The notes under the pieces were generated by a model that searched no databases, was not told where the DNA came from, and saw only the letters and a list, made by a program, of their open reading frames with translations. From an uncultured Planctomycetales bacterium (GTDB lineage Bacteria; Omnitrophota; Gorgyraeia; Zapsychrales; JANLHA01), in contig CAYYRJ010000002.1 in assembly GCA_964474085.1 (NCBI GenBank), positions 6,110 to 70,109 of the forward strand: a stretch of DNA of 64,000 nucleotides, written 5' to 3'. Shown piece by piece: positions 8,871-63,973 of the stretch (its first letter is position 1; every line of letters starts with the position of its first letter). Both the position numbers and the translations under genes were made by a program.

Positions 8871-9060
8871 AAAGCTAGACTAGAAATTTCTGTCGTCGAG
8901 GGACAGTAAAATTTCCTTGCTGAGAGTCAATTCATGTAGTATTCTTTAGCTGTGTCCTAACCCATCAAAAGTTCTTGATTCAACTTTCTCAACCCGTATA
9001 TTTTCGTTATTTTGTGAGTCCAAAACGATGTTTATTGGCTCGTGGTCAACTGTGTTTGTT

Positions 9061-9110
9061 GTCATCCTCGTTGTGTTTATTGTCATCCCCGCGAAAGCGG
9101 GGATCCATTT
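9061..9110 (+). repeat. GNRA-hairpin palindromic repeat units in 5' leader of giant gene 1
   Basis: tgtcatcctcg...TGTCATCCCCGCGAAAGCGGGGATCCA immediately before ATG 9111; same unit recurs at 9781 and 26784. Confidence 0.6.
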
Positions 9111-12100
9111 ATGAATACAAAACATAAAAATTTATTTCGCAAAGGCGTTAGCACCCTGATTCTGCTGTGTTTTTTAAGCGGACAGGTCTTTTCGCCGTCG
9201 ATTGTTTCGGCACAAAGTGTCCTTAATCTGCCCATGCCCGGAGCGATGGTCGGCATCAGCCCCAGCTACGTTCCAATTGCCATTAAAGGCCTCAAAGTTT
9301 ATCCTGATAATCCTTTTCGTTTTGACTTTATCCTCGACACCGGCAACTCCCGACTTGAAGGCCAGAAACTCCAAAACGAAACTAATCTTTTAATCAAATA
9401 CTTCCTCGCCGCATTAACTGTTCCCGATGACGATCAATGGGTCAATCTTTCGCCTTATGAAAAAGACCGCGTGATCCCTAAAGAATTTGGGGTGACCGAA
9501 ATGGGCCGCGATTTGTTGGCCCAGGATTATCTGCTTAAGCAATTGACCGCATCATTGATTTATCCGGAACATGAATTAGGCAAGAAATTCTGGGACCGGG
9601 TAAATCAGAAGGCTTATGAAAAGTACGGCGACACAAAGGTCCCGATGAGCACATTCAATAAAGTGTGGATCATGCCCGACCATGCCAAGGTTTATGAAAG
9701 CGGGAGTGTCGCTTTTATCACCGAGAGTCATTTGAAGGTGATGTTGGAAAGTGATTATGTAGCATTGGCTACCCAGCAAATGTCATCCCCGCATGCTTTA
9801 AGCGGGGATCCATTATTAAAAATGGATTCCCGCTTCCGCGGGAATGACAAAGGAGAGCAAACAAACGCATTAGGTTCCCAAATCCTTCGCGAAATCGTCC
9901 TGCCGGAGATCGAAAAAGAAATCAATGAAGGCAAGAATTTTACCAAGCTGCGTCAAATTTATCATTCCATGATCATGGCTGCGTGGTTTAAGCGCAAACT
10001 ACAAGGAGGAATGCTGAGCAAGATTTATGTTGGTGCTAATAAAGTGGCGGGCGTCGATGTTGAAGACAAAGACGTTAAACAAAAAATTTACGACCAGTAT
10101 ATCGTTGCGTTCAAGAGGGGTGTTTATAACTATATCAAAGAAGAAATCGACCCCGTCACTCAAGAAAACACACCACGCAAATATTTTTCCGGCGGGGTCG
10201 TGGCAGGGAAAGCCGTGGCGTATACAACGGTCATTGAAATCGCAAGTTCACCACAGCAATTAAACACCGTTGTCGCTAGCAGCACCACTGGCAATTTAAT
10301 TACGGCTTTTTCGACGTTGGAGCCAACATCCGCTTCCAGTTCTTTGGATGATAAGCGTATCAAAAGAATGCTGGAACTTTCCAAGAGTAAAGATTCTTGG
10401 GACTGGGTTTCTGACGAGTGGGAAATTAGCGAACTCATCTACTCCCCAGGAGGGATTCAGAAGTCCGGTATAATTGGTTCCAACCGGCAACCGATTGCAA
10501 CTGACGAATTCGGAAATCGTCCACACTGGGTTTATATCCTTTACAATTCGCAAACTGACAAAACCGTCTATGTCGGACCCGATGATGTCAAAGCCCTTTT
10601 TGGGAAACGTGATCGATTGGAAACTATCGATCAACTGCGCGCGGAAAAAGAAGCGGAAATTAAGGCCAACAGTGCACGGGTAAAGATAATCGCTGCGCTT
10701 CGACAGCTCTTTGGCGAAACAGAGGGCACAAAGCAACTAGTGTCCGAATTGGCCGGTGATATTGAAAAACCCGGCGATCGCCATATCGAGCTTATTGAAT
10801 CCTCAGAGCAAGAATACGAAGAAATCTGGAAGAATTTTCAATTGCCGGATGTAGCGCTCCAGAGATTCCTAGAAATATTTTATGATGTAAGCAAAGCCGC
10901 CAAAGAGGCCAAAAGATGGGAAAAACTGATTTACCTGTCCGTAGATGACCAAAAGCAGGTTTCCAAAGTGCTCGCCGGCATTAAAGATGGAAAAACTTTG
11001 ACAATTGAGGATATCCGTTTATTGATCAAAGTCCACAAAGTTATCTTGGATTTAAAAAACAGTCTCAAAAAAGAAGCCTTAGTTTGGGCCAGGCGCGGAA
11101 CACAGAAATCTGACGAGCATGTCAATCCAAGGCGGCCCGCTTATCAAGCCAATATTTGGGTCGCATCCTGGCTGGCCGCTGCGAGTCTGACTCATCCACT
11201 AATTTTAGACGTGGGAGCAAATTCAAGCGTCCTGTGGTCAACATTAAAAGGCTTTTCCCCGGAGTTGGCAGATGATGTTGTTGACCTCGAATACGATAAA
11301 GATATTTATGAAGTTGCTCCGAATCCCTTAAAAATTCGCGCTGATATCAGCCGCCTCACGGATGGGATCGAGAGTTCCGATGAAACAACCAAAGAACTGA
11401 TTACAACGCCTCACAGCTTCGATATTCTAACTGTTAACTTTGTTTTAGACCAGCTTGAACCCGCCGATGTCCGAGGCGCTTTAATCGCTTTTGAACATTT
11501 GCTTAAATTGGCTTCCGATCATCCGCGGCTAATTATTTCCATGCCTAAGGGGTCGCCGTTAAAAGGTTCTCGTTTTCATGCCGTTTTGCAAAGACTTGGC
11601 TATAAAACCATTGTTGAAGGCGCGAATTTGAGCAATCAGTTAACAACTGCTGCCAAAGAAAGAATCAGCCAAGAAACAGGAGGCAATGAATATTTGCGCA
11701 CGATTGAAGCGACCTTGACCGAAAAAGTTTTTCACGTTGGGGTTTATGAAAAAACCAGAGACGTTGCCGCTAGCGAATTTGATCAGATCGATCTTTCGGA
11801 TCTTGAAATCCGTAACGGCGACAGCAGGCAATCAAACGGTAACGGAAACGGTAACGGTTTTGATTACCGCTTTACGCCTGACACAGTTGATCTTAACGAT
11901 CTATTTGCCTCGCTCAAGCCGGAAGATTTTCTAACTAAATCCGTAGAAATTGTGACGCTAAATGAATTAAGCACAAACCCACAGTATGCGGCGTTCTATA
12001 AAAATTTAGATGTCTTATTATGGCTCAAGGATATGATTACGAATAGGCCTCAAGTTTTAGAAGCCATCCCACAATTGCGCACCTTAAAGCGCAGTTGGGA

Positions 12101-13904
12101 ATCCGCCGCCAGGGCCAAGGCTTCGATGGATGAAGGAGCTGCTTTTATCCAGGCGGATTTTGTCCGGGATATCATGTGGGCGATGGACAGAACAATATTG
12201 GTTTTAGATCAGGTCGCAGCTATGTCGCCGGATGTCTTTGAACACTTAACCCGCCAAAGAGAAGAGGTTAAAACAGCATGGGATTTTGATAACCGGTTTA
12301 ACGTCGATTTTGACCAAGCCCGGCAGGCGTTCATAAGAAATCTAGAAAAACAGAAATATTCCCTTGAGAACATCTACGACATATACCAGATAATTTACGC
12401 CGAAGCTCTTGGACTTGTAGCTGCCCTTGAACAACCTAAAGCTGTTGTAGAGAATAAGCCATATCAAAAACCGGCTAACCCAAAATTCCTCAATGAGGCT
12501 CTCGGTATTAAAAGTTATGCTGACCCCAAAATTGAGGAACAAATAAAACAAACGGCCGCCCGACTCAAAGAACAAAACGGACGGATGGGAACAGTCAGCG
12601 AGATCGCAAAAGCAATGGACGTCGATGTCCTTTTGCTAAATATGCATCTTAAATTCTTTTATCGCAACGATACTCAATATGTAGCATCATTGAATAATTT
12701 AGGGATGGAGCCGGATGACATTCCTTCAAATAAAATGGCACGACGCAAACTTGTGAGTGAAACAGCGATAAGAATTCTTGAAAAATATGGTTATCTTCCC
12801 ACACCGAAAATGGTTGAACGCGTTCTTGGGTTACGGAATGGAACGCTCAACCGATGGCGAACCAAGGGAGGAATGTTGGAGGAACAAGAAGACTGGGGGA
12901 CATTAGGTCTTTTTGCTTACTATGATCGCACTGATTTCGACTACCACACCATCCCCATCGAATCCCGGCTTGCCGCCGTGCGATATTTAGCCAATATAAT
13001 CCGCACCGATCCAAATCCAAAGCCGCTCATTAAACTATTTTTTGATTATTATCATATCCCACTTCATTCAGCAGCTAGGCTTATGAAATCATTATTTGAA
13101 GACGGTTATACCCTTGATGCGCTGGGGATCGACCCAAAGTTCTATAATCATGCTGAATACTTTAAGCCGCAAAACGCTGCATATACGCTACGCATTTTTC
13201 ATAATAAAGATTACCCTGTCGATAAAAGAGAGCAGGCCATAAAGACAATTATTGGAAACTTGGAAAACCGCGGGATTAAGCCGACCTACAGCGCCGTTCT
13301 AAAAGAAATGAATCTTGATATACCGAATTTCTTGAAATTTATTGCTCCTATTCTTCCAGCGGGAGATAGTTATTATGTAAAATTCGGTATCGAAAATGGT
13401 AGCGTCCCCACAGGTTATGACGAGGCGGCTTATCAAAGACTAGAAAAAACTGTGTCTGCCCTGAACTCCCAAAATATTCCGCTAACATGGCCTAATGTTA
13501 AAAAATGGGTTTTTGAGCATTACCCCGCTACTGAGCTGCACGACGGCTGGCTGCCCGGGCCTATCCGACACGATGAGACCGCAAAAAGAAAGGACGCGCT
13601 GGGAATTGCCGACGGTGAACAAATACCGATCGCCAGTTCCAGTTTAAGTCAAGCAGAAATATCACCTGCGACAAAAACCAGAATGGAAAACAATCTCGGC
13701 GGTATCGACATGAATTCAAAGGCTTTAGATTTGCAAACAGAAGGAGAAGGGATCAAGTTCGACATGCCGTTTGACCCGACACAGTTACAAAACATCAAAA
13801 TCGAAGGTTTCACACCGGTGATTTTACGTATCCTTCCAACCAATTTGCCGCTATTACGCGATCTTAAAGAAAATAAAAAAGAAATAGAAGTTAGTAGCTT
13901 ATAA
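9111..13904 (+). CDS. giant secreted protein 1 (about 1597 aa) with conserved N-module and C-module shared with giants 2 and 3; contains methyltransferase-like segment and GNGNGNG repeat
   Basis: Signal-peptide-like start MNTKHKNLFRKGVSTLILLCFLSGQVFSPSIVSAQS; N-module YFLAALTVPDDDQWVNLSPYEKDRVIPKEFGVTEMGRDLLAQDYLLKQLTASL...VWIMPDHAKVYESG shared with ORFs at 55413 and 58661; the 23 codons upstream of 9111 in the tracker ORF are repeat translation (CHPRESGDP). Confidence 0.8.
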   Translation: MNTKHKNLFRKGVSTLILLCFLSGQVFSPSIVSAQSVLNLPMPGAMVGISPSYVPIAIKGLKVYPDNPFRFDFILDTGNSRLEGQKLQNETNLLIKYFLAALTVPDDDQWVNLSPYEKDRVIPKEFGVTEMGRDLLAQDYLLKQLTASLIYPEHELGKKFWDRVNQKAYEKYGDTKVPMSTFNKVWIMPDHAKVYESGSVAFITESHLKVMLESDYVALATQQMSSPHALSGDPLLKMDSRFRGNDKGEQTNALGSQILREIVLPEIEKEINEGKNFTKLRQIYHSMIMAAWFKRKLQGGMLSKIYVGANKVAGVDVEDKDVKQKIYDQYIVAFKRGVYNYIKEEIDPVTQENTPRKYFSGGVVAGKAVAYTTVIEIASSPQQLNTVVASSTTGNLITAFSTLEPTSASSSLDDKRIKRMLELSKSKDSWDWVSDEWEISELIYSPGGIQKSGIIGSNRQPIATDEFGNRPHWVYILYNSQTDKTVYVGPDDVKALFGKRDRLETIDQLRAEKEAEIKANSARVKIIAALRQLFGETEGTKQLVSELAGDIEKPGDRHIELIESSEQEYEEIWKNFQLPDVALQRFLEIFYDVSKAAKEAKRWEKLIYLSVDDQKQVSKVLAGIKDGKTLTIEDIRLLIKVHKVILDLKNSLKKEALVWARRGTQKSDEHVNPRRPAYQANIWVASWLAAASLTHPLILDVGANSSVLWSTLKGFSPELADDVVDLEYDKDIYEVAPNPLKIRADISRLTDGIESSDETTKELITTPHSFDILTVNFVLDQLEPADVRGALIAFEHLLKLASDHPRLIISMPKGSPLKGSRFHAVLQRLGYKTIVEGANLSNQLTTAAKERISQETGGNEYLRTIEATLTEKVFHVGVYEKTRDVAASEFDQIDLSDLEIRNGDSRQSNGNGNGNGFDYRFTPDTVDLNDLFASLKPEDFLTKSVEIVTLNELSTNPQYAAFYKNLDVLLWLKDMITNRPQVLEAIPQLRTLKRSWESAARAKASMDEGAAFIQADFVRDIMWAMDRTILVLDQVAAMSPDVFEHLTRQREEVKTAWDFDNRFNVDFDQARQAFIRNLEKQKYSLENIYDIYQIIYAEALGLVAALEQPKAVVENKPYQKPANPKFLNEALGIKSYADPKIEEQIKQTAARLKEQNGRMGTVSEIAKAMDVDVLLLNMHLKFFYRNDTQYVASLNNLGMEPDDIPSNKMARRKLVSETAIRILEKYGYLPTPKMVERVLGLRNGTLNRWRTKGGMLEEQEDWGTLGLFAYYDRTDFDYHTIPIESRLAAVRYLANIIRTDPNPKPLIKLFFDYYHIPLHSAARLMKSLFEDGYTLDALGIDPKFYNHAEYFKPQNAAYTLRIFHNKDYPVDKREQAIKTIIGNLENRGIKPTYSAVLKEMNLDIPNFLKFIAPILPAGDSYYVKFGIENGSVPTGYDEAAYQRLEKTVSALNSQNIPLTWPNVKKWVFEHYPATELHDGWLPGPIRHDETAKRKDALGIADGEQIPIASSSLSQAEISPATKTRMENNLGGIDMNSKALDLQTEGEGIKFDMPFDPTQLQNIKIEGFTPVILRILPTNLPLLRDLKENKKEIEVSSL
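9781..9849 (+). repeat. 69-bp composite palindromic element inserted in-frame in giant gene 1
   Basis: TGTCATCCCCGC-atgctttaa-GCGGGGATCCA ttattaaaaa TGGATTCCCGC-ttcc-GCGGGAATGACA; translated in frame as MSSPHALSGDPLLKMDSRFRGND; 69 nt = 23 codons, no stop. Confidence 0.7.
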
Positions 13905-26692: not shown

Positions 26693-26923
26693 CCCCCTCT
26701 TAAGTTACAGACTGGGTCAGATGCAGGGGCATTCTGAAAAGTGGATTCCCGCTTTCGCGGGAATGACAAAAGAGGTAGTGTCATCCCTGCGAAAGCAGGG
26801 ATCCAGGGTTTTAGTGGCACATAATTAAAAAATTTTATGTTCTCGACGACAAGCTATAATTCATCGTCGACAAATATCATTAAATCTCTCCCCATCTGAC
26901 CCAGCCTGAAGTTAAAGAGGGGG
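26693..26923. mobile_element. MITE-like non-autonomous element with 31-bp imperfect terminal inverted repeats carrying GNRA-hairpin repeat units
   Basis: Left end CCCCCTCTTAAGTTACAGACTGGGTCAGATG vs right end CATCTGACCCAGCCTGAAGTTAAAGAGGGGG (about 26 of 31 complementary); interior holds TGGATTCCCGC-tttc-GCGGGAATGACA and TGTCATCCCTGC-gaaa-GCAGGGATCCA plus TCGACGA...TCGTCGA; no ORF. Confidence 0.55.
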
Positions 26924-55412: not shown

Positions 55413-58400
55413 CTAGTTAGTTATTTCGCTTAATATTGGTACGGTCTGGACATTAATCGGCATAATATTAAGGATAACCGGATAAAAACCATTTACATGA
55501 ATATCCTCTAAATCTTTTTGCGAGAAAGACAGATGCCCACGACTCCGATCTTCATCACCCTCGATCTGCAAGTTGAGTTTAGAAGGATCAAAGTTAATAC
55601 CACCGAGATTTTTATGGACCGCTGGAAAAAAAGCAGCTTCATGTCCATTAACTGCGTTTAAAACGACACCGTCTTTTTGTTTATCTAAAACGTTTTTCTC
55701 TACCCGTCTAGATAATTCGTTTCGTGCCCATGCAAAAATAAGTTCATACATCTTGTCCCCCGCAGAAACACCACTGGCTTTAGCGAACACTTCTCCCTCA
55801 TTGAAAGCAAGAACTCTTTTCCAAGAAGATCGAAACCAATACTTAATCGCAAATGGCCGAAAAAGCACACTTTCCGACGATCCTTTTGCCCAATATTCGA
55901 GATATTCCTTATCCAATGCAGCAAAATATGTTTGAAAAAAAGTTTGTATCATTTCGGCGGAAGACGGCAAAATATATTTTTGATCAGGCTCAGTGTATCT
56001 AACAATGTCTTTTATATCCTCGAGCACAGAAAGCATACCTGCCGTGCTAATTCTATACTTGCGCAATGTTTCGATATCTTTTTCAGTAGCTTTTCCTTTT
56101 TCAACATAAACAACAAAATCATTGTAGGAAAGAAATTCTTCATTGTCTGATTCTTGAAAAAACGGGAAAACGATATCTTGAGGATGTATCGTTTTTTTGA
56201 ATAATTGCTTATTTTGTTTTTCTGCTTCAGCCAAAGCTCTTTTTTCGACTCCTGCTAAGATCAATTCTTTAACTGACAAAATCTTCCCCGCAGGCAACAT
56301 GTTTAACTCCACCATTCTTCTCGATATTCTTCGACGCAATCGCTCGAATCCCGGATCGCCATTAAGAATTTGACGAAACTTGGTTAATCGCTGCGGGTAT
56401 ACTACTCGATTAAATATGAGGACAGGAATAAACTTCGACCCATCCTCATCTTGAAAAAGATCCAGATTTTTTACGGAAACTAGATTGCCATTCCCGTCGG
56501 GTATCTCATTTAAATATTGATACCCCAAAATTTCGACAAACAAACCTTTTGTATTCTCTAAGATTTTACTAGCAGCCATGGCCGCCTTGGCTTCTTTTTC
56601 AGAGGCTAATCCCCAGTTTCTCGAAGATGCTAATTCCGGGTTTCTTAATAGTTCAGGCATACTTTTCACTGAGAAAAAAGGAGGTTTATCCTCATATACG
56701 TACTGACCTGATCCTTTTATACTAAACCAAGAAGAGGCATAGGCCTGCCTCCCATTGGCGACTCTAAATCCGGGGCTAAAAGTTTCATCCGCCGAACTAA
56801 ATCGATCGGTGATCCCAATAAATATTTTAGTTTCCGGGTTTTGACGTAATGCCCTAAGAGCAACCTCTGCATTGCCAATTAGAAAACCGCGATGTTCTTT
56901 TATATAATCCCGTATCGGCTTACCATCAATATACTCAACAGCCCTATTATTATTGACGACCATATCACCAACACTATGATCGGGCAATGATTGCAAAAAT
57001 TGCGGCCTCAAGGAAGGGTCATCTAATAAAATTTGTTTAACTTCCAAAGTAAACAAATCTAAAAGTGGTTGATAATGATGTTCCTTGTGTTCAAAGTCAG
57101 GGAAGATAGAATCTTGCCTCGTTAAATAAGCTCGCCATTTACTCTTAAATTCTTCTGGGGATAAATCTTCTGCCAAATTTACTTCCTGGGTCTTCGCGAT
57201 ATTAACGAAACCATCCTCGGCAGGATTAACTTTTCTGGCGTGGTGACTTTCCGAAACACGGGAAGAAACAAGCACGACTTGGTTTTCCTGCAAATCGCTA
57301 ATCGCGCGCACAGCCAGATCACGTCCGCGATCATCAATGACGGTTAATGAACTCGAAGCAAAGCTCATCACTTCTCCACCCGAGAAATATTTTCGAGGAA
57401 TCATTTCCCCATCGGGGCCGTCTTCTTCCTTGATAAGGTTATATGCGCCGTTTTTGAATGCTTCCAAATACTTCTCATAAACTTCTTGCTTAATATCTTG
57501 AACATCGCTTTCAAGACCTGCGACTTTCGATTTGTCGGTGTAAATTCTGCTAAACAAAGAGTCTTTAAGCGCCTTTTTATACCAAGCCGCTAAAATGACG
57601 CTTTGATAAACTTGGCGGGTCGCGGCAAAATTCTTGCCCGTGTTGACTTCTTCAATAAGCTTAGGCAAGATCAGCTCGCGAAAAACCGCGGTGGAAATGG
57701 AAACGACAGAAGAACCCCTATTTATCTGTAGGGGCGTATTGCAATACGCCCCTACGGCATTATTTTCATATTCCTCATCTAACATCACCTTTAATTTACT
57801 TTCCGTAATGTAAGCAAAGCCGTCCTTTTCGACAACTGTTGCGCCGTCGGGAACGATCCAGACTTTATTCTGTAGGGGTGTATTACAATACGCCCCTACG
57901 GCAATGCTTCGTTCATTAACTGTATCCCAGAATCTTTTCCCCAAATCCGTATCCGGATTGGTCAAAGACGCAGCCAACTGCTTTAAAACATAATCCTGTT
58001 CAAGCATTTGTCGACCCATTTCGGTTTGTCCGAGAGCATCAGGAACGATACGATCTTTCTCATACGGTGATAGATTAACCCACGCGTCCTTATCAGGAAT
58101 AGTGATGGAAGCTAAAAAGTATTTTATGAGTTTTGTGCTTTCGTTTTTGAGGGTCGCATTATCGATCCTCTCCTGCCCGCGATCGACGATAAAATCAAAC
58201 AAAAACGGATTTTCAGGATGAACCGTCATCCCTCTTAATACGGGCGGTTGAAAAGCGACCGAAGTCGCAAAGTCTAAAGGGATACCGATCCGACCCGCGG
58301 CGAGGCCAGAGGTAAGCCAAACCATCTGCCCTACCAAAAACGCCAGCAGAATAAAGCCGCTCATAGCTTTGCGAAACCCAAATTTATCTTTAACAAGCAT
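55413..58400 (-). CDS. giant secreted protein 2 (about 995 aa); N-module and C-module shared with giants 1 and 3; unknown core
   Basis: N-module LIKYFLASITIPDKDAWVNLSPYEKDRIVPDALGQTEMGRQMLEQDYVLKQLAASL...VWIVPDGATVVEKDG; C-module KNLGGINFDPSKLNLQIEGD...VNGFYPVILNIMPINV; start ATG 58400 (MLVKDKFGFRKAMSGFILLAFLVG, signal-peptide-like) preferred over 58481, which would overlap the small ORF at 58403-58630. Confidence 0.75.
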   Translation of the reverse strand: MLVKDKFGFRKAMSGFILLAFLVGQMVWLTSGLAAGRIGIPLDFATSVAFQPPVLRGMTVHPENPFLFDFIVDRGQERIDNATLKNESTKLIKYFLASITIPDKDAWVNLSPYEKDRIVPDALGQTEMGRQMLEQDYVLKQLAASLTNPDTDLGKRFWDTVNERSIAVGAYCNTPLQNKVWIVPDGATVVEKDGFAYITESKLKVMLDEEYENNAVGAYCNTPLQINRGSSVVSISTAVFRELILPKLIEEVNTGKNFAATRQVYQSVILAAWYKKALKDSLFSRIYTDKSKVAGLESDVQDIKQEVYEKYLEAFKNGAYNLIKEEDGPDGEMIPRKYFSGGEVMSFASSSLTVIDDRGRDLAVRAISDLQENQVVLVSSRVSESHHARKVNPAEDGFVNIAKTQEVNLAEDLSPEEFKSKWRAYLTRQDSIFPDFEHKEHHYQPLLDLFTLEVKQILLDDPSLRPQFLQSLPDHSVGDMVVNNNRAVEYIDGKPIRDYIKEHRGFLIGNAEVALRALRQNPETKIFIGITDRFSSADETFSPGFRVANGRQAYASSWFSIKGSGQYVYEDKPPFFSVKSMPELLRNPELASSRNWGLASEKEAKAAMAASKILENTKGLFVEILGYQYLNEIPDGNGNLVSVKNLDLFQDEDGSKFIPVLIFNRVVYPQRLTKFRQILNGDPGFERLRRRISRRMVELNMLPAGKILSVKELILAGVEKRALAEAEKQNKQLFKKTIHPQDIVFPFFQESDNEEFLSYNDFVVYVEKGKATEKDIETLRKYRISTAGMLSVLEDIKDIVRYTEPDQKYILPSSAEMIQTFFQTYFAALDKEYLEYWAKGSSESVLFRPFAIKYWFRSSWKRVLAFNEGEVFAKASGVSAGDKMYELIFAWARNELSRRVEKNVLDKQKDGVVLNAVNGHEAAFFPAVHKNLGGINFDPSKLNLQIEGDEDRSRGHLSFSQKDLEDIHVNGFYPVILNIMPINVQTVPILSEITN
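57728..57755. repeat. 28-bp perfect palindrome inserted in-frame in giant gene 2 (copy 1)
   Basis: GTAGGGGCGTATTGCAATACGCCCCTAC; translated on the minus strand as AVGAYCNTPLQ. Confidence 0.7.
57872..57899. repeat. 28-bp palindrome inserted in-frame in giant gene 2 (copy 2, two mismatches)
   Basis: GTAGGGGTGTATTACAATACGCCCCTAC; also translated as AVGAYCNTPLQ; the two copies flank the conserved VWIVPD...ITESKLKVMLDEEY segment. Confidence 0.7.
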
Positions 58401-58402
58401 AT

Positions 58403-58630
58403 TTAAAGAGTGTCCCCGCGAACCAACAAACGGCGTTTTCGGGTTCCAACTGTCTTTCGTTTCCGATAACGGGCGATCCAAGCCATCGCGTATCTCTTAA
58501 GCCACTGCGCAGATCCCTGCTCAAAACTTATTTCATGTCCGGCCTTTTCGCTTTCGATCCAAATATAGCGGTCGATCTCGGCTAAGACTTTTTTGTTTTT
58601 CAATAACTGTGAATAATAAATACTGGCCAT
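58403..58630 (-). CDS. small hypothetical protein (75 aa) between giant genes 3 and 2
   Basis: MASIYYSQLLKNKKVLAEIDRYIWIESEKAGHEISFEQGSAQWLKRYAMAWIARYRKRK; compact, non-low-complexity; stop 2 nt before the preferred start of giant gene 2. Confidence 0.4.
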   Translation of the reverse strand: MASIYYSQLLKNKKVLAEIDRYIWIESEKAGHEISFEQGSAQWLKRYAMAWIARYRKRKTVGTRKRRLLVRGDTL

Positions 58631-58660: not shown

Positions 58661-61600
58661 TTAAACGTCTGAATGCTCCAACTGCGATTTAAACCCCAAA
58701 AAAATCGGCATATTTACCGGCGTCATCGGCGAGATATTTCTAATAACAGGCACAAGCCCCGGGATATCAAGCAATGCCGGATCCTGAAACTGCACAGGTA
58801 ACACGAACCCTTTATCATCAACTTTGACATTGATCTTTAAATTATTCGCATCAAGGTCAATACCGCCAACCGGCGCTGAGGCAACACTTGCGGCGGCATC
58901 TGAATCCGGCAAAAGATAATACGGAAACAAATGCGGCAAAATAACCTCTCCTGCTTGACGAGAAGCAATCGAATTATAATTGCGATGATTCCCTATGCCG
59001 GTGACATCCGCCTGCGGCACAATCAGAACACCAGCCACACTTTCTTCGCCGTCTCTGACATCCAAAACAGTGATATCCGCGCCGTCTGAAAGCGGATGAT
59101 CGCCGCGCTTTATCCCTTGTGTGTTGATCCATGCAACTTTTGCATTAAACGCGTTTCCTTTAATGGATCCGATAACTCGCCTGCTTTCTAAACCCTGCTC
59201 ATCAACTAAGACATAATCGGTATCTTTGTCAAAAGCCGCAGACCTTAAAAAGTTTTGCTCGTCGGGACTGACCGTCGTAAATTTGACGCGTTGTTGTCCC
59301 GAAATTTCAAAAAGATGTCCATCGTTTTCTTGAAACTGCTGGATTAACTTATCCGCCGAGGAATCTTTTTTTGTCACAACCACAATGTTGATGGGTTTAC
59401 CGTTTGGTTTTGCGGCCGTGTCAAAAACCCAATGTTTCAACAGAAGATTAACCGCCCCGGCAAATGACGGCGCGGAAATTCCCTGAACTTCCTGACTAAA
59501 GGCCTTTGCGGCACCGGCTTCAGCTGTCGCTAAAAGTAGCTGCGCTGTTGCGCTCGCCGGATTTCCAAAACGTCCATATGTCCGGTAAGATCCCTGAGCA
59601 GGAAAAGAACCACTGCTAGGATCCCCCGCCTTGCCATTCCAACCAAAACCAGTTTTAAGATCATCCGGGTCATCCGCGCGAAAAGCGTTTGATGGATTGC
59701 CGCCGCTGGCAACCAGCGAGCGATGGTCTCCGCTTAACAATCCCCAAATGGACGTATGATGTATAAACAATGTGTGCGGATTATATTTTGTGATCAGCGT
59801 CGCATCGTTGATCAGCTGCGCTGTTTGTTTAAGAGGATTTTCCGAGATAATAAAATAGTCCCGAACCCGGTCAAGTTCGGCAATTGACGCATTGATATCC
59901 GGTTCCACGCCGTAGGCGCCTTTTGTGTCACGCTTGACGACTGGATACTTGCGCAACGCGTAGCCTGTTTTTCCGTCGACATTTGTTGTCGGCTGCATAA
60001 AAATAGTGTCGAGCTGCGCGAACGGAATTTTTTCAAACTTGCCATCGTATATTTTAAGAATCTCAAAAATAGCGTCTAATTCACGCAAAACATCCTTTGG
60101 ATCCTCAATTCCCACAGCCCAGCGAATACCCCCACGCGTGACCCCGCCTTGGCGCAGTTCTTCGTCACTTAATCCCGATAGCGCGCCATAACCGGGCATT
60201 TGCATGAGGTTACGAACATCACCTAGGCTCACAGCGTGTTCAATAGTTCGAAAATACCGTAAAAGCGCCATAAACGCTTTCGCGCGCTCTTCTGTTTTCA
60301 AATCAAAATAAATCATATGTCCCGGGTTATCCATCTGCTTTTGCGCTAAACCATATTGTGGATGCGTTTGATCGCCGGGATAACGCACAAACTCAACCTG
60401 AGGATTCTTTTTTAACCACTCGACATAAAATCGGGCGTTTTCCTGCTGCCGAAAAAATCTTCTTTCCAAATTCGGCAATCCGTAACGCAAAAGTTTAATC
60501 GCATCATCCCTATTGATCGGCTCGGCCCGAGAATTTCGCAATTCTTGCGCGATCTCTTTTTGGGCAACAATGACCGCGCCAAAAACATTTCCGTCGCCGG
60601 AAAGCCCTTTGGTCACAACCTGAACAACCGCGTCAACACCAAAATCTAGCGGCTGTTGGCCTAAGGATGTTGCAAATGATCCGTCGAAAATAATAAACGC
60701 TTGCGGTGAAACAGAACTGCGCACCGCGTCAACTGTCCGCTTAATACTAATAATCGGCAAGGAAGGATTAGCCGGAGTTTCAAAAATCAAAGCCGCTGTA
60801 TTTCGAGATAACTCCTGCGCAAGTTGATTTTCCGGATCAGTCACAATCTTAACCTTAAGGCCATATTTCCTATATAATTCAACATCGCCTTCTGTCCCGC
60901 CGTAAGCCGGACGAATTAAAATTATTTCAGGAACCAAAGCAGGATTTTGTTCAGTAAATTTTTTTAACGCGTATCGCAGCGGCAAATGCACACCAGCAAC
61001 ACCGGAAGCAACACTAACACCGGCATATTGCTCTGTTACTAAATTTCGTGTCTCAAGCGCTGTGATCGCCTGCTCAACTTGTTCGACAGGATTCAAAACG
61101 ATTTGAGGTGTATTCCCAGAACCATTATTCCCGCCAGAGCCGGCTTTATTTGCGATTGGAGGTTTTCTTGGTGCTCGGGCTTTTGCCACAGGCTTTTGTC
61201 CCAAAGCTTCTTGCGCAACCACAACCCGAAGCTCATCTAAAGTCTCTGTTTTTGCGGCAATGGGACTGATGCTATCCGATATAAATCCCTGTGCTGTCCC
61301 GACGCTAATTCCTTCATCTTCCAAAACAACATCTGGTTTATTTTCTGATGTATTAACAGGAAGAATTCGGTTTGTATCAACAACGGTCTGATCTGCTAAA
61401 ACTGTTTTTGTAACCGTAGCGTTAGCTCCAATTTGAGCCCCTTTACCGACGGTGATCGGTCCTATGATCTGTGCTCCGGCGCCTAAAGTGACATCATCTT
61501 CAACAATGGGGTGTCGGCGACCGTCAATCGTATTTTTATTTGCGCCAAGGGTCACGCCATGCAAAATATAAACATTGTTTCCAACGACAGCTGTCTGCCC

Positions 61601-63973
61601 TATAACAACACCTGTCGCATGATCAAACAATACGCCATCGCCAATTGTCGCGCCTGGATGAATATCCACCCCGAAATTGTTCGTGATCGCATTTTGTAAA
61701 GCTAAAGCCAAATCCTGCCTGTCATTAAGCCACAGCCAATGTGCGATGCGATAAGCCGCAAGCGCGTGGAACCCTTTAAAATTAAGGAATGGATTAGAAA
61801 TATCCCCGGACGCAGGATCACGTTCAAGCACAGCCAAAAGATCGCGGCTAACTGAGTTAAGAATATCCGGCGATGCGTTTAACACTTGCAATATTCCCTG
61901 CTTTAGCTTATCAACATCAAATACGTCTGAGCGGAGTTTACTTGCTAATAAATTAGCAAGCGCCGTTTTAAAATCTGGTGCGGAAAGGATCGTTTTTTCA
62001 AGAGGCGCAGAAAGAAGCGGCTCTTGTTTGGCAACACGGCCAGCATTTTCTTTTAAACGATTCCAGAGAGAATCCAATTGCGCCGAATCAGAACTGCTAT
62101 CTGCCTTACCGCTAGTATCTCCAACAACTTTTAATGCTGGTTTTTTTGTCGACGTTTTTGCGGCTTTTTCTGCCCGCTTTAAATTTGTTGAACTTTCCGT
62201 CTTCGCGTAAACTCTTTTTAATTGCGCTAAACGTTCCCATGCTTCTTCTGGATCAATCGAATCAATCTGGCGATCATCTCGATGGGCTCTTAAACTTTCG
62301 GCAATTGCTTTTTCGGAAACAACGATCAACCCTTTTGAATTTTGCTGCGCAAGCGTTGTGGTTGCCTTATTTAAACGTGCCCCGCTGAAAGCAACAAGCG
62401 CTTGCGGATTTTTAGCATTGACCGTCTGGATAAATTGCTGCGAACTTTCTGATTTCGCAAATGGGAACAATACAATAGCAGTTTGTTTTGTCAAAACTTC
62501 GGTTAACTGTTCAATATTCTTAACAATGTGCACTTGCTGTGAATTACGACGAGCATATTCGCCAATAACGCTATCTTGCGGCGTATCTTCAGGGATATAA
62601 AATACTACTTGGCCGGCTTGGCCGGTAAATTCAGGTTTTGTTTTTGCAAAATCGATCAGATGACCTACAGCTGAGAATTGATCCGCATAACTGACACCGT
62701 CAAAATCGCCTTTTTCTCCTGAAAAATGCACACGCGCAGTCAAATGCTCAACGGACCGCACCTTTTGATCGACTCCCAAATCCGAAAAATCATTGTAAGC
62801 TGATCGTATCGCATTGACCAAATCCGTATCAACTATATCCGGTGATTTGCCGTTTAAAAGTCGGTTCACCGAGCTTGAGGATACATTAGTGTTAATAATC
62901 GTCGGGTCAACGCCCAGCATCCCGCCGGAAAAATATTTACGAGGCAAAGTCTCATGCGTTAGCGGATCTTCTTCTTCCTTAATATAGTTAAACACCCCGA
63001 CCTTAAAAGCCTGCAAATATTGTTCATAAATTTTTTCTTTAGCCTGCGGGTCATCAACCTGCACACCCGCGACTTTATTCTTATCCGTGTAAACTTGCGC
63101 TAAAAGTGTTTCCTTGAGTGTTTTTTTATACCATGTCGCGAGAATCATTGAATTGTAGATCTGGCGAAGCGGCGCAAAGTTTTTGCCCTCGTTGACTTCC
63201 TTTTCGATGATCGGGATAATAATTTCGCGTACCGCGTTTAAAGTATATTCCTGATTTTCTGTGGAACTTTCAGGTTGCACCGTCTGTCCGCCGGAAGCCA
63301 AAACTTTGCTGTTTTCTTTTTCGGCCAGATAATCTTTTTCGAGCATGACTTTCAAATGGCTTTTTACCAAAAACGCAGTGCCGTCTTTTTGATAAATATC
63401 TGCCTGATCGGCACGAATCCAAATTTTATTAAATGTATTAATAGGGATATCTGTCGTCTTAAATTTTTCATATGCCTGACTATACACTTTTTGCCAAAAT
63501 CCACGACCAATATCCTCTTCTGGATACATCAAAGAGGCTGTAAATTGTTTTAGAATATAATCCTGTGCTAAAAGTTCTTTTCCGGTGTTCGTTTGCTCAA
63601 GATTTTTGCCAATGATCCGATTAGACTCATAAGGCGAAAGATTAACCCACATGTCTTTATTGGCAACCGTCAAAGATGCAAGAAAATGCTTAATGAGTTT
63701 TGTGTACTGTTCTTTCTGCTGATTGGCACTCAAAAGCTCATCGCCCTTGTCCATCACAAAGTAAAAGTGGAAAGGGTTTTGCGGGTCGATCTTTAAACCG
63801 ATCATCTGCGCCGGAGTAAAAATGCCGGTCGGCTGCAACATTTGCCCGATGGGAGAAAGCAAAGGCACAGCTTGCGCATAACCCGACTGCGCAGGCAACG
63901 CGCTTAGCATAAACACAATAAGTGCAATCGCGATTGGACGAAACAAAGATTTTTTCTTAATTTGCTGAAACAT
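58661..63973 (-). CDS. giant secreted multidomain protein 3 (1770 aa): shared N-module, complete CysE-like serine acetyltransferase, complete PLP-dependent Cys/Met-metabolism (CGS/OAS-OAH sulfhydrylase family) domain, shared C-module
   Basis: Signal peptide MFQQIKKKSLFRPIAIALIVFMLSALPAQSGYAQA. N-module HFLASLTVANKDMWVNLSPYESNRIIGKNLEQTNTGKELLAQDYILKQFTASL. Residues about 700-860: GFHALAAYRIAHWLW...DIHPGATIGDGVLFDHATGVVIGQTAVVGNNVYILHGVTLG (SAT). Residues about 955-1305: ASGVAGV...YGGT...ETPANP...FDGSFATS...GVDAVVQVVTKGLSGDGNVFGAVIV...GIRWAVGIEDPKDVLRELDAI (PF01053-type, PLP lysine K1122 at nt 60608-60610). Confidence 0.8.
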   Translation of the reverse strand: MFQQIKKKSLFRPIAIALIVFMLSALPAQSGYAQAVPLLSPIGQMLQPTGIFTPAQMIGLKIDPQNPFHFYFVMDKGDELLSANQQKEQYTKLIKHFLASLTVANKDMWVNLSPYESNRIIGKNLEQTNTGKELLAQDYILKQFTASLMYPEEDIGRGFWQKVYSQAYEKFKTTDIPINTFNKIWIRADQADIYQKDGTAFLVKSHLKVMLEKDYLAEKENSKVLASGGQTVQPESSTENQEYTLNAVREIIIPIIEKEVNEGKNFAPLRQIYNSMILATWYKKTLKETLLAQVYTDKNKVAGVQVDDPQAKEKIYEQYLQAFKVGVFNYIKEEEDPLTHETLPRKYFSGGMLGVDPTIINTNVSSSSVNRLLNGKSPDIVDTDLVNAIRSAYNDFSDLGVDQKVRSVEHLTARVHFSGEKGDFDGVSYADQFSAVGHLIDFAKTKPEFTGQAGQVVFYIPEDTPQDSVIGEYARRNSQQVHIVKNIEQLTEVLTKQTAIVLFPFAKSESSQQFIQTVNAKNPQALVAFSGARLNKATTTLAQQNSKGLIVVSEKAIAESLRAHRDDRQIDSIDPEEAWERLAQLKRVYAKTESSTNLKRAEKAAKTSTKKPALKVVGDTSGKADSSSDSAQLDSLWNRLKENAGRVAKQEPLLSAPLEKTILSAPDFKTALANLLASKLRSDVFDVDKLKQGILQVLNASPDILNSVSRDLLAVLERDPASGDISNPFLNFKGFHALAAYRIAHWLWLNDRQDLALALQNAITNNFGVDIHPGATIGDGVLFDHATGVVIGQTAVVGNNVYILHGVTLGANKNTIDGRRHPIVEDDVTLGAGAQIIGPITVGKGAQIGANATVTKTVLADQTVVDTNRILPVNTSENKPDVVLEDEGISVGTAQGFISDSISPIAAKTETLDELRVVVAQEALGQKPVAKARAPRKPPIANKAGSGGNNGSGNTPQIVLNPVEQVEQAITALETRNLVTEQYAGVSVASGVAGVHLPLRYALKKFTEQNPALVPEIILIRPAYGGTEGDVELYRKYGLKVKIVTDPENQLAQELSRNTAALIFETPANPSLPIISIKRTVDAVRSSVSPQAFIIFDGSFATSLGQQPLDFGVDAVVQVVTKGLSGDGNVFGAVIVAQKEIAQELRNSRAEPINRDDAIKLLRYGLPNLERRFFRQQENARFYVEWLKKNPQVEFVRYPGDQTHPQYGLAQKQMDNPGHMIYFDLKTEERAKAFMALLRYFRTIEHAVSLGDVRNLMQMPGYGALSGLSDEELRQGGVTRGGIRWAVGIEDPKDVLRELDAIFEILKIYDGKFEKIPFAQLDTIFMQPTTNVDGKTGYALRKYPVVKRDTKGAYGVEPDINASIAELDRVRDYFIISENPLKQTAQLINDATLITKYNPHTLFIHHTSIWGLLSGDHRSLVASGGNPSNAFRADDPDDLKTGFGWNGKAGDPSSGSFPAQGSYRTYGRFGNPASATAQLLLATAEAGAAKAFSQEVQGISAPSFAGAVNLLLKHWVFDTAAKPNGKPINIVVVTKKDSSADKLIQQFQENDGHLFEISGQQRVKFTTVSPDEQNFLRSAAFDKDTDYVLVDEQGLESRRVIGSIKGNAFNAKVAWINTQGIKRGDHPLSDGADITVLDVRDGEESVAGVLIVPQADVTGIGNHRNYNSIASRQAGEVILPHLFPYYLLPDSDAAASVASAPVGGIDLDANNLKINVKVDDKGFVLPVQFQDPALLDIPGLVPVIRNISPMTPVNMPIFLGFKSQLEHSDV

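Follow-up and report, generated by a model that had tools for sequence, protein, structure and literature searches.

How does the same 28-nt palindrome come to lie twice, and in frame, within one protein-coding gene? The question is raised by a 64,000-nt stretch of DNA (NCBI GenBank assembly GCA_964474085.1, contig CAYYRJ010000002.1, positions 6,110 to 70,109 of the forward strand), here called the window, from a genome deposited as an uncultured Planctomycetales bacterium and placed by GTDB in Omnitrophota. The two palindromes lie in a gene on the minus strand that we call giant 2. They are very probably repetitive extragenic palindromes (REPs) of the double-foot GTAG kind, the type of subclass 2.4 of the REP-associated tyrosine transposases (RAYTs), which a Y1 transposase would have copied into the gene and which persisted where the frame was kept and the protein loops were tolerant.

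The copy at 57728 has the structure GTAG-GGGCGTATTG/CAATACGCCC-CTAC and is read on the minus (coding) strand as VGAYCNTPL within AVGAYCNTPLQ. The copies at 57728 and 57872 share one frame of the open reading frame (ORF) 55413..58481(-), each encodes AVGAYCNTPLQ, and the two peptides bracket the segment NKVWIVPD...KVMLDEEYENN of giant 2. An earlier note on this DNA had described a perfect 28-bp palindrome and a two-mismatch copy that both encode this 11-mer in frame, and the sequence and a pattern search confirmed the description. The pattern search gave 0 matches in 100 dinucleotide-preserving shuffles, and no further GTAGGGG...CCCCTAC is present in the 64-kb window besides the two giant 2 copies.

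The likeness of the copies extends beyond the palindrome. Another 3 + 4 flanking bases are common to both, making them direct repeats of a 35-nt unit (coding-strand form T GCC + 28-mer + AG A; Table 1). The two differences between the copies are both synonymous (Cys TGC/TGT and Thr ACG/ACA). The copies are spaced 144 bp apart, for which independent uniform placement in 64 kb gives p ~0.5% (2 x 144 / 64000); two independent, uniformly placed events are very unlikely to have produced this spacing. Because both copies have the same 35-nt unit, the same frame and this short spacing, one was probably derived from the other.

Spread of the 28-mer and its link to a Y1 transposase

The spread of the element was scanned with its 22-nt core, using one genome per species. 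The 28-mer was found in DNA of more than 20 bacterial phyla, on at least 119 stretches, with 131 occurrences among the matches listed. Its hosts are Cyanobacteria, Omnitrophota, Planctomycetota (anammox lineages), Chloroflexota, Nitrospirota, Sumerlaeota, Atribacterota, groups of the Candidate Phyla Radiation, Zixibacteria, Ignavibacteria, Deinococcota and others. Several loci per genome were seen among these matches, at least six in the Omnitrophota metagenome-assembled genome STF1_189 and at least seven in Thermoflexus. This abundance outside the window bears out the earlier view of the palindrome as a selfish element. Neither the 28-mer nor its three peptides, searched for as text in the literature, gave a relevant result.

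Across the 131 listed occurrences, GTA and TAC, the three-base borders of the 22-nt core, were 92-97% conserved, and the bases beyond them were unconserved. Because conservation ends three bases outside the searched core, the mobile unit, as far as sequence defines it, is exactly the 28-mer, with sharp edges. Long open frames (at least 150 codons) held 39% of the 28-mers compared to 80% of random positions in the same loci, a clear depletion. The 28-mer is therefore mainly extragenic, with a substantial intragenic minority. Within genes it is read as VGAYCNTPL or as RGVLQYAPT, and the third frame contains the TAG of GTAG. In-frame copies elsewhere were found in a class I aminoacyl-tRNA synthetase (L092), a UvrD-type helicase (L107), an Eco57I-type methylase (L054) and a type IX secretion system (T9SS) sorting domain (L041).

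Two ideas about how the element spreads were rejected. Insertion into pre-existing hairpins would extend the palindrome, and an extension of at least 1 bp occurred in 30 of the 131 listed copies, no above-chance frequency. Phages as vectors were also rejected, since the exact 28-mer was present in only 5 of 2.9 million IMG/VR contigs (L123-L127), each time solitary and with no adjoining RAYT.

Some loci are more complex. Clusters of three 28-mers lie within larger local repeats at L104 (3266-3650), in an open stretch that by eye is upstream of an apparent valyl-tRNA synthetase start, and at L072 (4719-6408), where the DNA is GC-rich and shows no clear gene. At L024, L069, L109 and L119 (cyanobacteria and Chloroflexia) the 28-mer is centred in another palindrome, ..GAAACCCGGTTTCG[28-mer]CGAAACCGGGTTTC.., and longer common flanks within L019/L032/L039 and within L017/L038/L063 indicate composite repeats in those genomes.

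An E. coli RayT sequence was used only as a probe for transposases, and the matches were then validated with Pfam and NCBIfam. A gene of ~180 aa for a Y1 HUH protein was present in 7 of the 119 listed 28-mer loci. The protein passes the Pfam Y1_Tnp cut-off (26 bits against 23) and has all the subclass 2.4 motifs (NH[IFV]H, WQ and YIxNNP). Against the NCBIfam model REP_Tyr_transpos (REP-associated tyrosine transposase) it scores 72 bits, which is below the curated cut-off of 80, and we therefore do not claim these proteins as equivalogs of the E. coli enzyme.

At six of these seven loci the Y1 gene itself contains the 28-mer, in frame directly after the HUH motif (MPNHIHGI...). Among these six listed loci it is read five times in the RGVLQYAPT frame and once in the VGAYCNTPLQ frame. 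Extra 28-mers lie just upstream of the Y1 gene at L077, L001 and L085. Among the 120 best homologues of the Y1 protein, nearly all have RGVLQYAPT or an analogous peptide (for example RGTMHRAPT, RGTLQRAPT, RGDRPVAPT or VGATRRVAPT) in the post-HUH loop, and by back-translation several of these loop peptides could be encoded by a GTAGGGGC-N12-GCCCCTAC palindrome. Six RAYT homologues (P0139, P0146, P0157, P0193, P0203 and P0234) carry a number of REP-derived peptides in this loop, arranged in tandem and partly degenerate, with four RGESQYAPTEDAPTEYDI-type repeats in P0193. REPs thus appear to pile up within the transposase gene.

The host domain and its loops

Giant 2 begins with an N-terminal hydrophobic signal or anchor, followed by a ~350-aa Omnitrophota-specific N-domain and a lineage-specific remainder. 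The N-domain is common to two paralogues in the window, 58661..63973(-) and giant 1 (9042..13904(+)), and has 845 homologues in the database. The named homologues are all from Omnitrophota/Omnitrophica, the exception being one hydrothermal-vent metagenome record (P0086). The N-domain matched no Pfam family, and comparison of its fold with the PDB brought up nothing significant (best E = 0.012, TM < 0.2).

Giant 2 was compared with the best 120 of the 845 homologues and with the two window paralogues. AVGAYCNTPLQ was present in 0/120 homologues, the closest of which is 61% identical, and in 0/2 paralogues. Because none of these proteins has it, the peptide in giant 2 is, on this comparison, acquired and not ancestral. 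Conservation of the peptide in distant homologues, which the earlier note had said would speak against an inserted element, was thus not seen among the 120. A search of JGI metagenomes for close orthologues of the giant-2-specific region gave 114 pattern matches, of which 0 were confirmed.

The two copies occupy different kinds of position. At site 2 (57728 copy) the peptide lies in the linker after KVMLExxY, which is variable in length and sequence throughout the family. At site 1 (57872 copy) the ~15-residue consensus of the relatives, AYEKYGTTxIPVNTF, is swapped for SIAVGAYCNTPLQ in giant 2, with the loss of a T-F pair that at least 90% of the family have. The proposal of an in-frame insertion consequently stands as to the frame, which both copies keep, but not as to a simple addition, as the 57872 copy replaces a nearly invariant 15-residue segment.

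An AlphaFold2 model was made for ORF residues 71-420 (a 350-aa fragment; 83-sequence alignment; mean predicted local distance difference test score, pLDDT, 75.6). In agreement with the expected loop location, both peptides fall at the ends of helices and in loops of this model (Table 1), where they would bracket a predicted beta-hairpin at fragment residues 137-164 (strands 137-149 and 152-164). Other palindromes occur at the same two sites in related proteins. Giant 1 has an in-frame dimer of another palindromic element at site 2 (9781-9851). At the DNA level, P0006 has another double-foot variant, GTAGGGACACGGCATGCCGTGCCCCTAC, at site 2 and in the same frame; P0040 has ATTCCGGCGAAAGCCGGAAT at site 2; and in P0002 both sites hold CCCCCTCTTTGGTTAAAGAGGGGG hairpins, with a third element also present at site 1. 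The tolerated insertion hotspot proposed in the earlier note for one loop is confirmed, and it covers both loops. A third position in the N-domain, at residue ~87, has the peptide VGAQNFEPLR in P0059 and P0109, which, as read from the protein, looks like another GTAGGGGC...GCCCCTAC-type REP in the VGA...PL frame.

Could AVGAYCNTPLQ instead be a protein motif that is ancestral or under functional selection, such as a pair of cysteines on either side of the beta-hairpin, with the palindrome being incidental? The synonymous nature of both nucleotide differences is consistent with such a motif, and a disulfide is conceivable in a protein with a signal/anchor sequence. However, the peptide is in none of the homologues and paralogues compared, identical DNA is mostly extragenic and is read in two frames inside genes of unrelated genomes, and selection on a peptide would not yield a perfect 28-nt palindrome. 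We regard a motif as highly improbable. The REP-encoded peptides in giant 2 are most likely neutral or mildly deleterious passengers.

A role of the palindromes as nucleic acid was also considered. In a predicted mRNA fold of 57700-57930(-), the two REP copies pair mutually, not each on itself, in a ~27-bp duplex, and the conserved block encoding the beta-hairpin is looped out between them (minimum free energy -85.7 kcal/mol, z = -6.5). The palindromes might thus be kept for an mRNA structure acting on translation or decay, or for a DNA structure allowing excision or inversion of the 144-bp module. Yet such pairing in silico is expected of any two copies of a palindrome, the homologues are without the palindromes and so provide no covariation or conservation, and perfect symmetry has already been lost in one copy. 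An Rfam scan of 57400-58200 gave nothing but a chance-level CRISPR-DR match elsewhere. Retention for either role seems improbable.

Palindromic repeats can confuse assemblers, and the nearly invariant T-F pair is lost at site 1, so that the two copies could be imagined to reflect a mis-join at a repeated palindrome or a decaying gene with an apparently intact ORF. Against this, the 1022-codon ORF is open and 25/25 family-invariant residues are kept, on both flanks of the copies and between them. The copies also differ at two positions and have unique flanks, and frame and homology continue on both sides. Assembly collapse, raised in the earlier note, is therefore unlikely, and an artefact or pseudogene in general has very little probability.

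Origin of the two copies

Collectively, the anatomy of the 28-mer, its spread and its association with Y1 genes in other genomes suggest how giant 2 came to carry it. Copying into the gene by a Y1 transposase is proposed by analogy with IS200/IS605 and TnpA_REP enzymes. The transposase would bind the GTAG-footed hairpin on single-stranded DNA and copy it to new sites. Intragenic copies would survive only if the total change keeps the frame; survivors would be read in either of the frames that avoid the TAG of GTAG, as VGAYCNTPL or RGVLQYAPT, and would sit in a tolerant surface loop. From one giant 2 copy the other, at a distance of 144 bp, would then have arisen, either through a local hop that carried a few flanking bases or through recombination or repair.

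The last step may have needed no transposase. A single arrival from outside could have been followed by duplication within the gene through local recombination, gene conversion or replication slippage, and the two copies have their seven extra flanking bases, frame and flank orientation in common although flanks past the 28-mer are unconserved in other genomes. The 144-bp spacing in a window without any other copy is also in keeping with duplication. On the other side, the target sites have no homology beyond the 35-nt unit to drive conversion, a RAYT cutting a few bases outside the hairpin would carry flanks too, and a common donor with those flanks is possible. We consider duplication a serious possibility for this step but lean somewhat against it.

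Several observations weigh against the reading of the two copies as REPs copied in by a Y1 transposase. The window has no RAYT-like gene and only two copies of the 28-mer, both within giant 2; for this genome a cognate transposase and multi-copy status of the element are presumptive. At site 1, 13 aa stand in place of 15, which a clean insertion would not produce and which calls for at least one further deletion. That both substitutions are synonymous hints weakly at constraint on the peptide over pure neutrality. In addition, mobilisation of REPs by TnpA_REP in vivo is described as still poorly understood in the part of the literature drawn on here (PMC8266576).

A bolder extension of the same reading would make a subclass 2.4 RAYT with an internal REP a minimal self-seeding replicator. 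It would have moved horizontally across more than 20 phyla with a 28-nt REP kept near-invariant by hairpin and codon constraint, and would now remodel the loops of a large surface-protein family in Omnitrophota. The giant 2 peptides, each with a Cys at the base of the beta-hairpin, would in that case have been recruited to a function such as that of a disulfide staple, or their mRNA duplex to a regulatory one. This combined scenario is very unlikely to hold.

Table 1. Positions of the palindromes, the peptides they encode and associated features (window coordinates, except for peptides, which are given as residues of the modelled fragment).
Feature	Position	Strand	Description
REP copy 1, GTAGGGGCGTATTGCAATACGCCCCTAC	57728-57755	.	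perfect 14+14 palindrome; site 2, hypervariable linker after KVMLDEEY
REP copy 2, GTAGGGGTGTATTACAATACGCCCCTAC	57872-57899	.	2 mismatches; site 1, conserved AYEKYGTTxIPVNTF in homologues
35-nt shared unit, instance 1	57725-57759	-	TCT + 28-mer + GGCA (+ strand); covers 11 codons AVGAYCNTPLQ
35-nt shared unit, instance 2	57869-57903	-	aligned coding-strand segments
116-nt spacer	57756..57871	-	encodes NKVWIVPDGATVVEKDGFAYITESKLKVMLDEEYENN, predicted beta-hairpin + helix start; homologous across family
Giant 2, host gene	55413..58481	-	1022-codon ORF; frame open through both REPs
Peptide 1 (site 1)	fragment residues 124-134		predicted end of helix 109-125 + loop 126-136; pLDDT ~80
Peptide 2 (site 2)	fragment residues 172-182		predicted end of helix 165-174 + loop 175-187; pLDDT ~60
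Different palindromic dimer (second family)	9781..9851	+	TGTCATCCCCGC..GCGGGGATCCA / TGGATTCCCGC..GCGGGAATGACA; in frame in giant 1, encodes ..SSPHALSGDPLLKMDSRFRGNDK..
Intergenic dimer of second family	26742..26805	.	
Single copy of second family	9080-9107		just upstream of giant 1's probable true ATG

The second palindromic family of the window has the consensus TGTCATCCC[C/T]GC..GC[G/A]GGGATCCA and encodes the peptides VIPAKAGI, SGDP and DSRFRGND. Related copies are present in the homologues P0002, P0021, P0029 and P0040. The GTG start of ORF 9042..13904 is probably spurious, because its first 23 codons (VVNCVCCHPRCVYCHPRESGDPF) read as palindromic-repeat read-through and the homologous signal peptide begins at the MNTKHKN ATG.

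The three large paralogues share the N-terminal signal/anchor and the ~350-aa N-domain. A ~60-aa C-terminal motif, recognised by eye (..GGI[DN]....L.LQ..G......GF.PVI..I.P..), is also common to all three and may be a lineage-specific sorting or anchoring signal. In the 1770-aa paralogue (58661-63973(-)) the N-domain is fused to a serine acetyltransferase (SATase_N + hexapeptide) and a pyridoxal phosphate (PLP) enzyme domain of Cys/Met metabolism, an odd partner for a signal-peptide protein.

Comparison with known palindromic elements

Omnitrophota are noted for very large, fast-evolving surface proteins. Giant 2 offers a well-controlled case of a mobile REP-type palindrome rewriting protein loops, in which over 800 homologues can be compared and the same two loops have taken up several unrelated palindrome families, and it extends the phenomenon of in-frame REPs to Omnitrophota. 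The uniformity of the 28-mer across phyla bears on vertical versus horizontal spread of RAYT/REP systems. In predicted proteins, VGAYCNTPL, RGVLQYAPT and GRIAIRPY can be read as REP footprints and not as motifs.

The earlier note had likened the giant 2 pair to Rickettsia palindromic elements (RPEs), selfish repeats that are maintained in frame inside protein-coding genes and typically lie at surface loops. In-frame residence at fold-compatible positions is a behaviour shared with RPEs, not proof of membership. The classic RPE-1 type is ~100-150 bp long, specific to Rickettsia and without a GTAG tag, and these descriptions set it apart from the giant 2 element, which is 28 nt long, GTAG-tagged, cosmopolitan and hosted by Omnitrophota. 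The comparison thus holds for an in-frame palindrome of selfish type, but by size and host the element is not an RPE and is instead a double-foot GTAG REP.

Miniature inverted-repeat transposable elements (MITEs) have terminal inverted repeats around a non-coding core and make a target-site duplication. This class was rejected: the unit here is one hairpin, its TCT and GGCA flanks are not direct repeats, and no duplication was seen in the 131 listed copies. The small dispersed repeats of cyanobacteria are reportedly palindromic, mobile, ~21-27 nt long and often nested, and the nesting of the 28-mer in other palindromes at L024, L069, L109 and L119 is a likeness to them. The pair also resembles REP doublets forming hairpins (REPINs; Bertels & Rainey 2011, PLoS Genet; PMC3116915) in having two REPs ~100 bp apart and a link to RAYTs. 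In a REPIN, however, two inverted REPs and the spacer between them make up a single mobile unit, repeated as one (PMC3116915), whereas the spacer of giant 2 is conserved host coding sequence. With the spacer 57756-57871 homologous across 120 relatives, a REPIN was rejected.

REPs wholly within ORFs that keep the frame have been described for the GTAG/CGTC REPs (Di Nocera, De Gregorio, Rocco 2013, BMC Genomics 14:522, PMC3733652). In that work some ORFs are hit twice, flexible linkers or loops are proposed as the sites, the highest intragenic counts are in Opitutus terrae, a relative within the Planctomycetes-Verrucomicrobia-Chlamydiae (PVC) group, and RPE-4 and RPE-6 of R. conorii are equated with CGTC REPs. 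The giant 2 copies likewise lie within an ORF of more than 120 aa (1022 codons), keep the frame and are lacking in homologues. The REPs of Di Nocera et al. have a tag at one end, and dimers make up over half of the intragenic cases (PMC3733652), whereas giant 2 has two single, doubly tagged units. Unlike those cases (PMC3733652), its pair brackets a beta-hairpin, and one copy replaces conserved residues.

The closest match is with the REPs of TnpA_REP subclass 2.4, which is group 4 of Bertels. In the account of Quentin, Siguier, Chandler, Fichant 2018 (BMC Genomics 19:475, PMC6006769), as far as it is drawn on here, these are 'double foot' REPs of 20-40 nt with 5' GT[AG]G, 3' C[TC]AC and three G-C pairs at the foot. 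Both giant 2 copies have GTAG...CTAC, are 28 nt long and have GGG/CCC directly after GTAG, and so agree with this definition in tags, size and foot. That account names in-frame REP insertions in tnpA_REP between HuH and Y as a striking trait peculiar to the subclass and calls its distribution patchy, over many phyla including Cyanobacteria (PMC6006769). A subclass 2.4 Y1 gene accompanies the 28-mer in other genomes, at the seven listed loci described above, and not in the window. The giant 2 case differs from those of Quentin et al. in its unrelated host gene and in its host, Omnitrophota, which the part of PMC6006769 used here does not name. The element class and its in-frame residence within genes are thus already published; what giant 2 adds is modest, namely a surface-protein family of Omnitrophota in which two loops repeatedly accept palindromes, conserved residues that are replaced at one site and the cross-phylum uniformity of the 28-mer.

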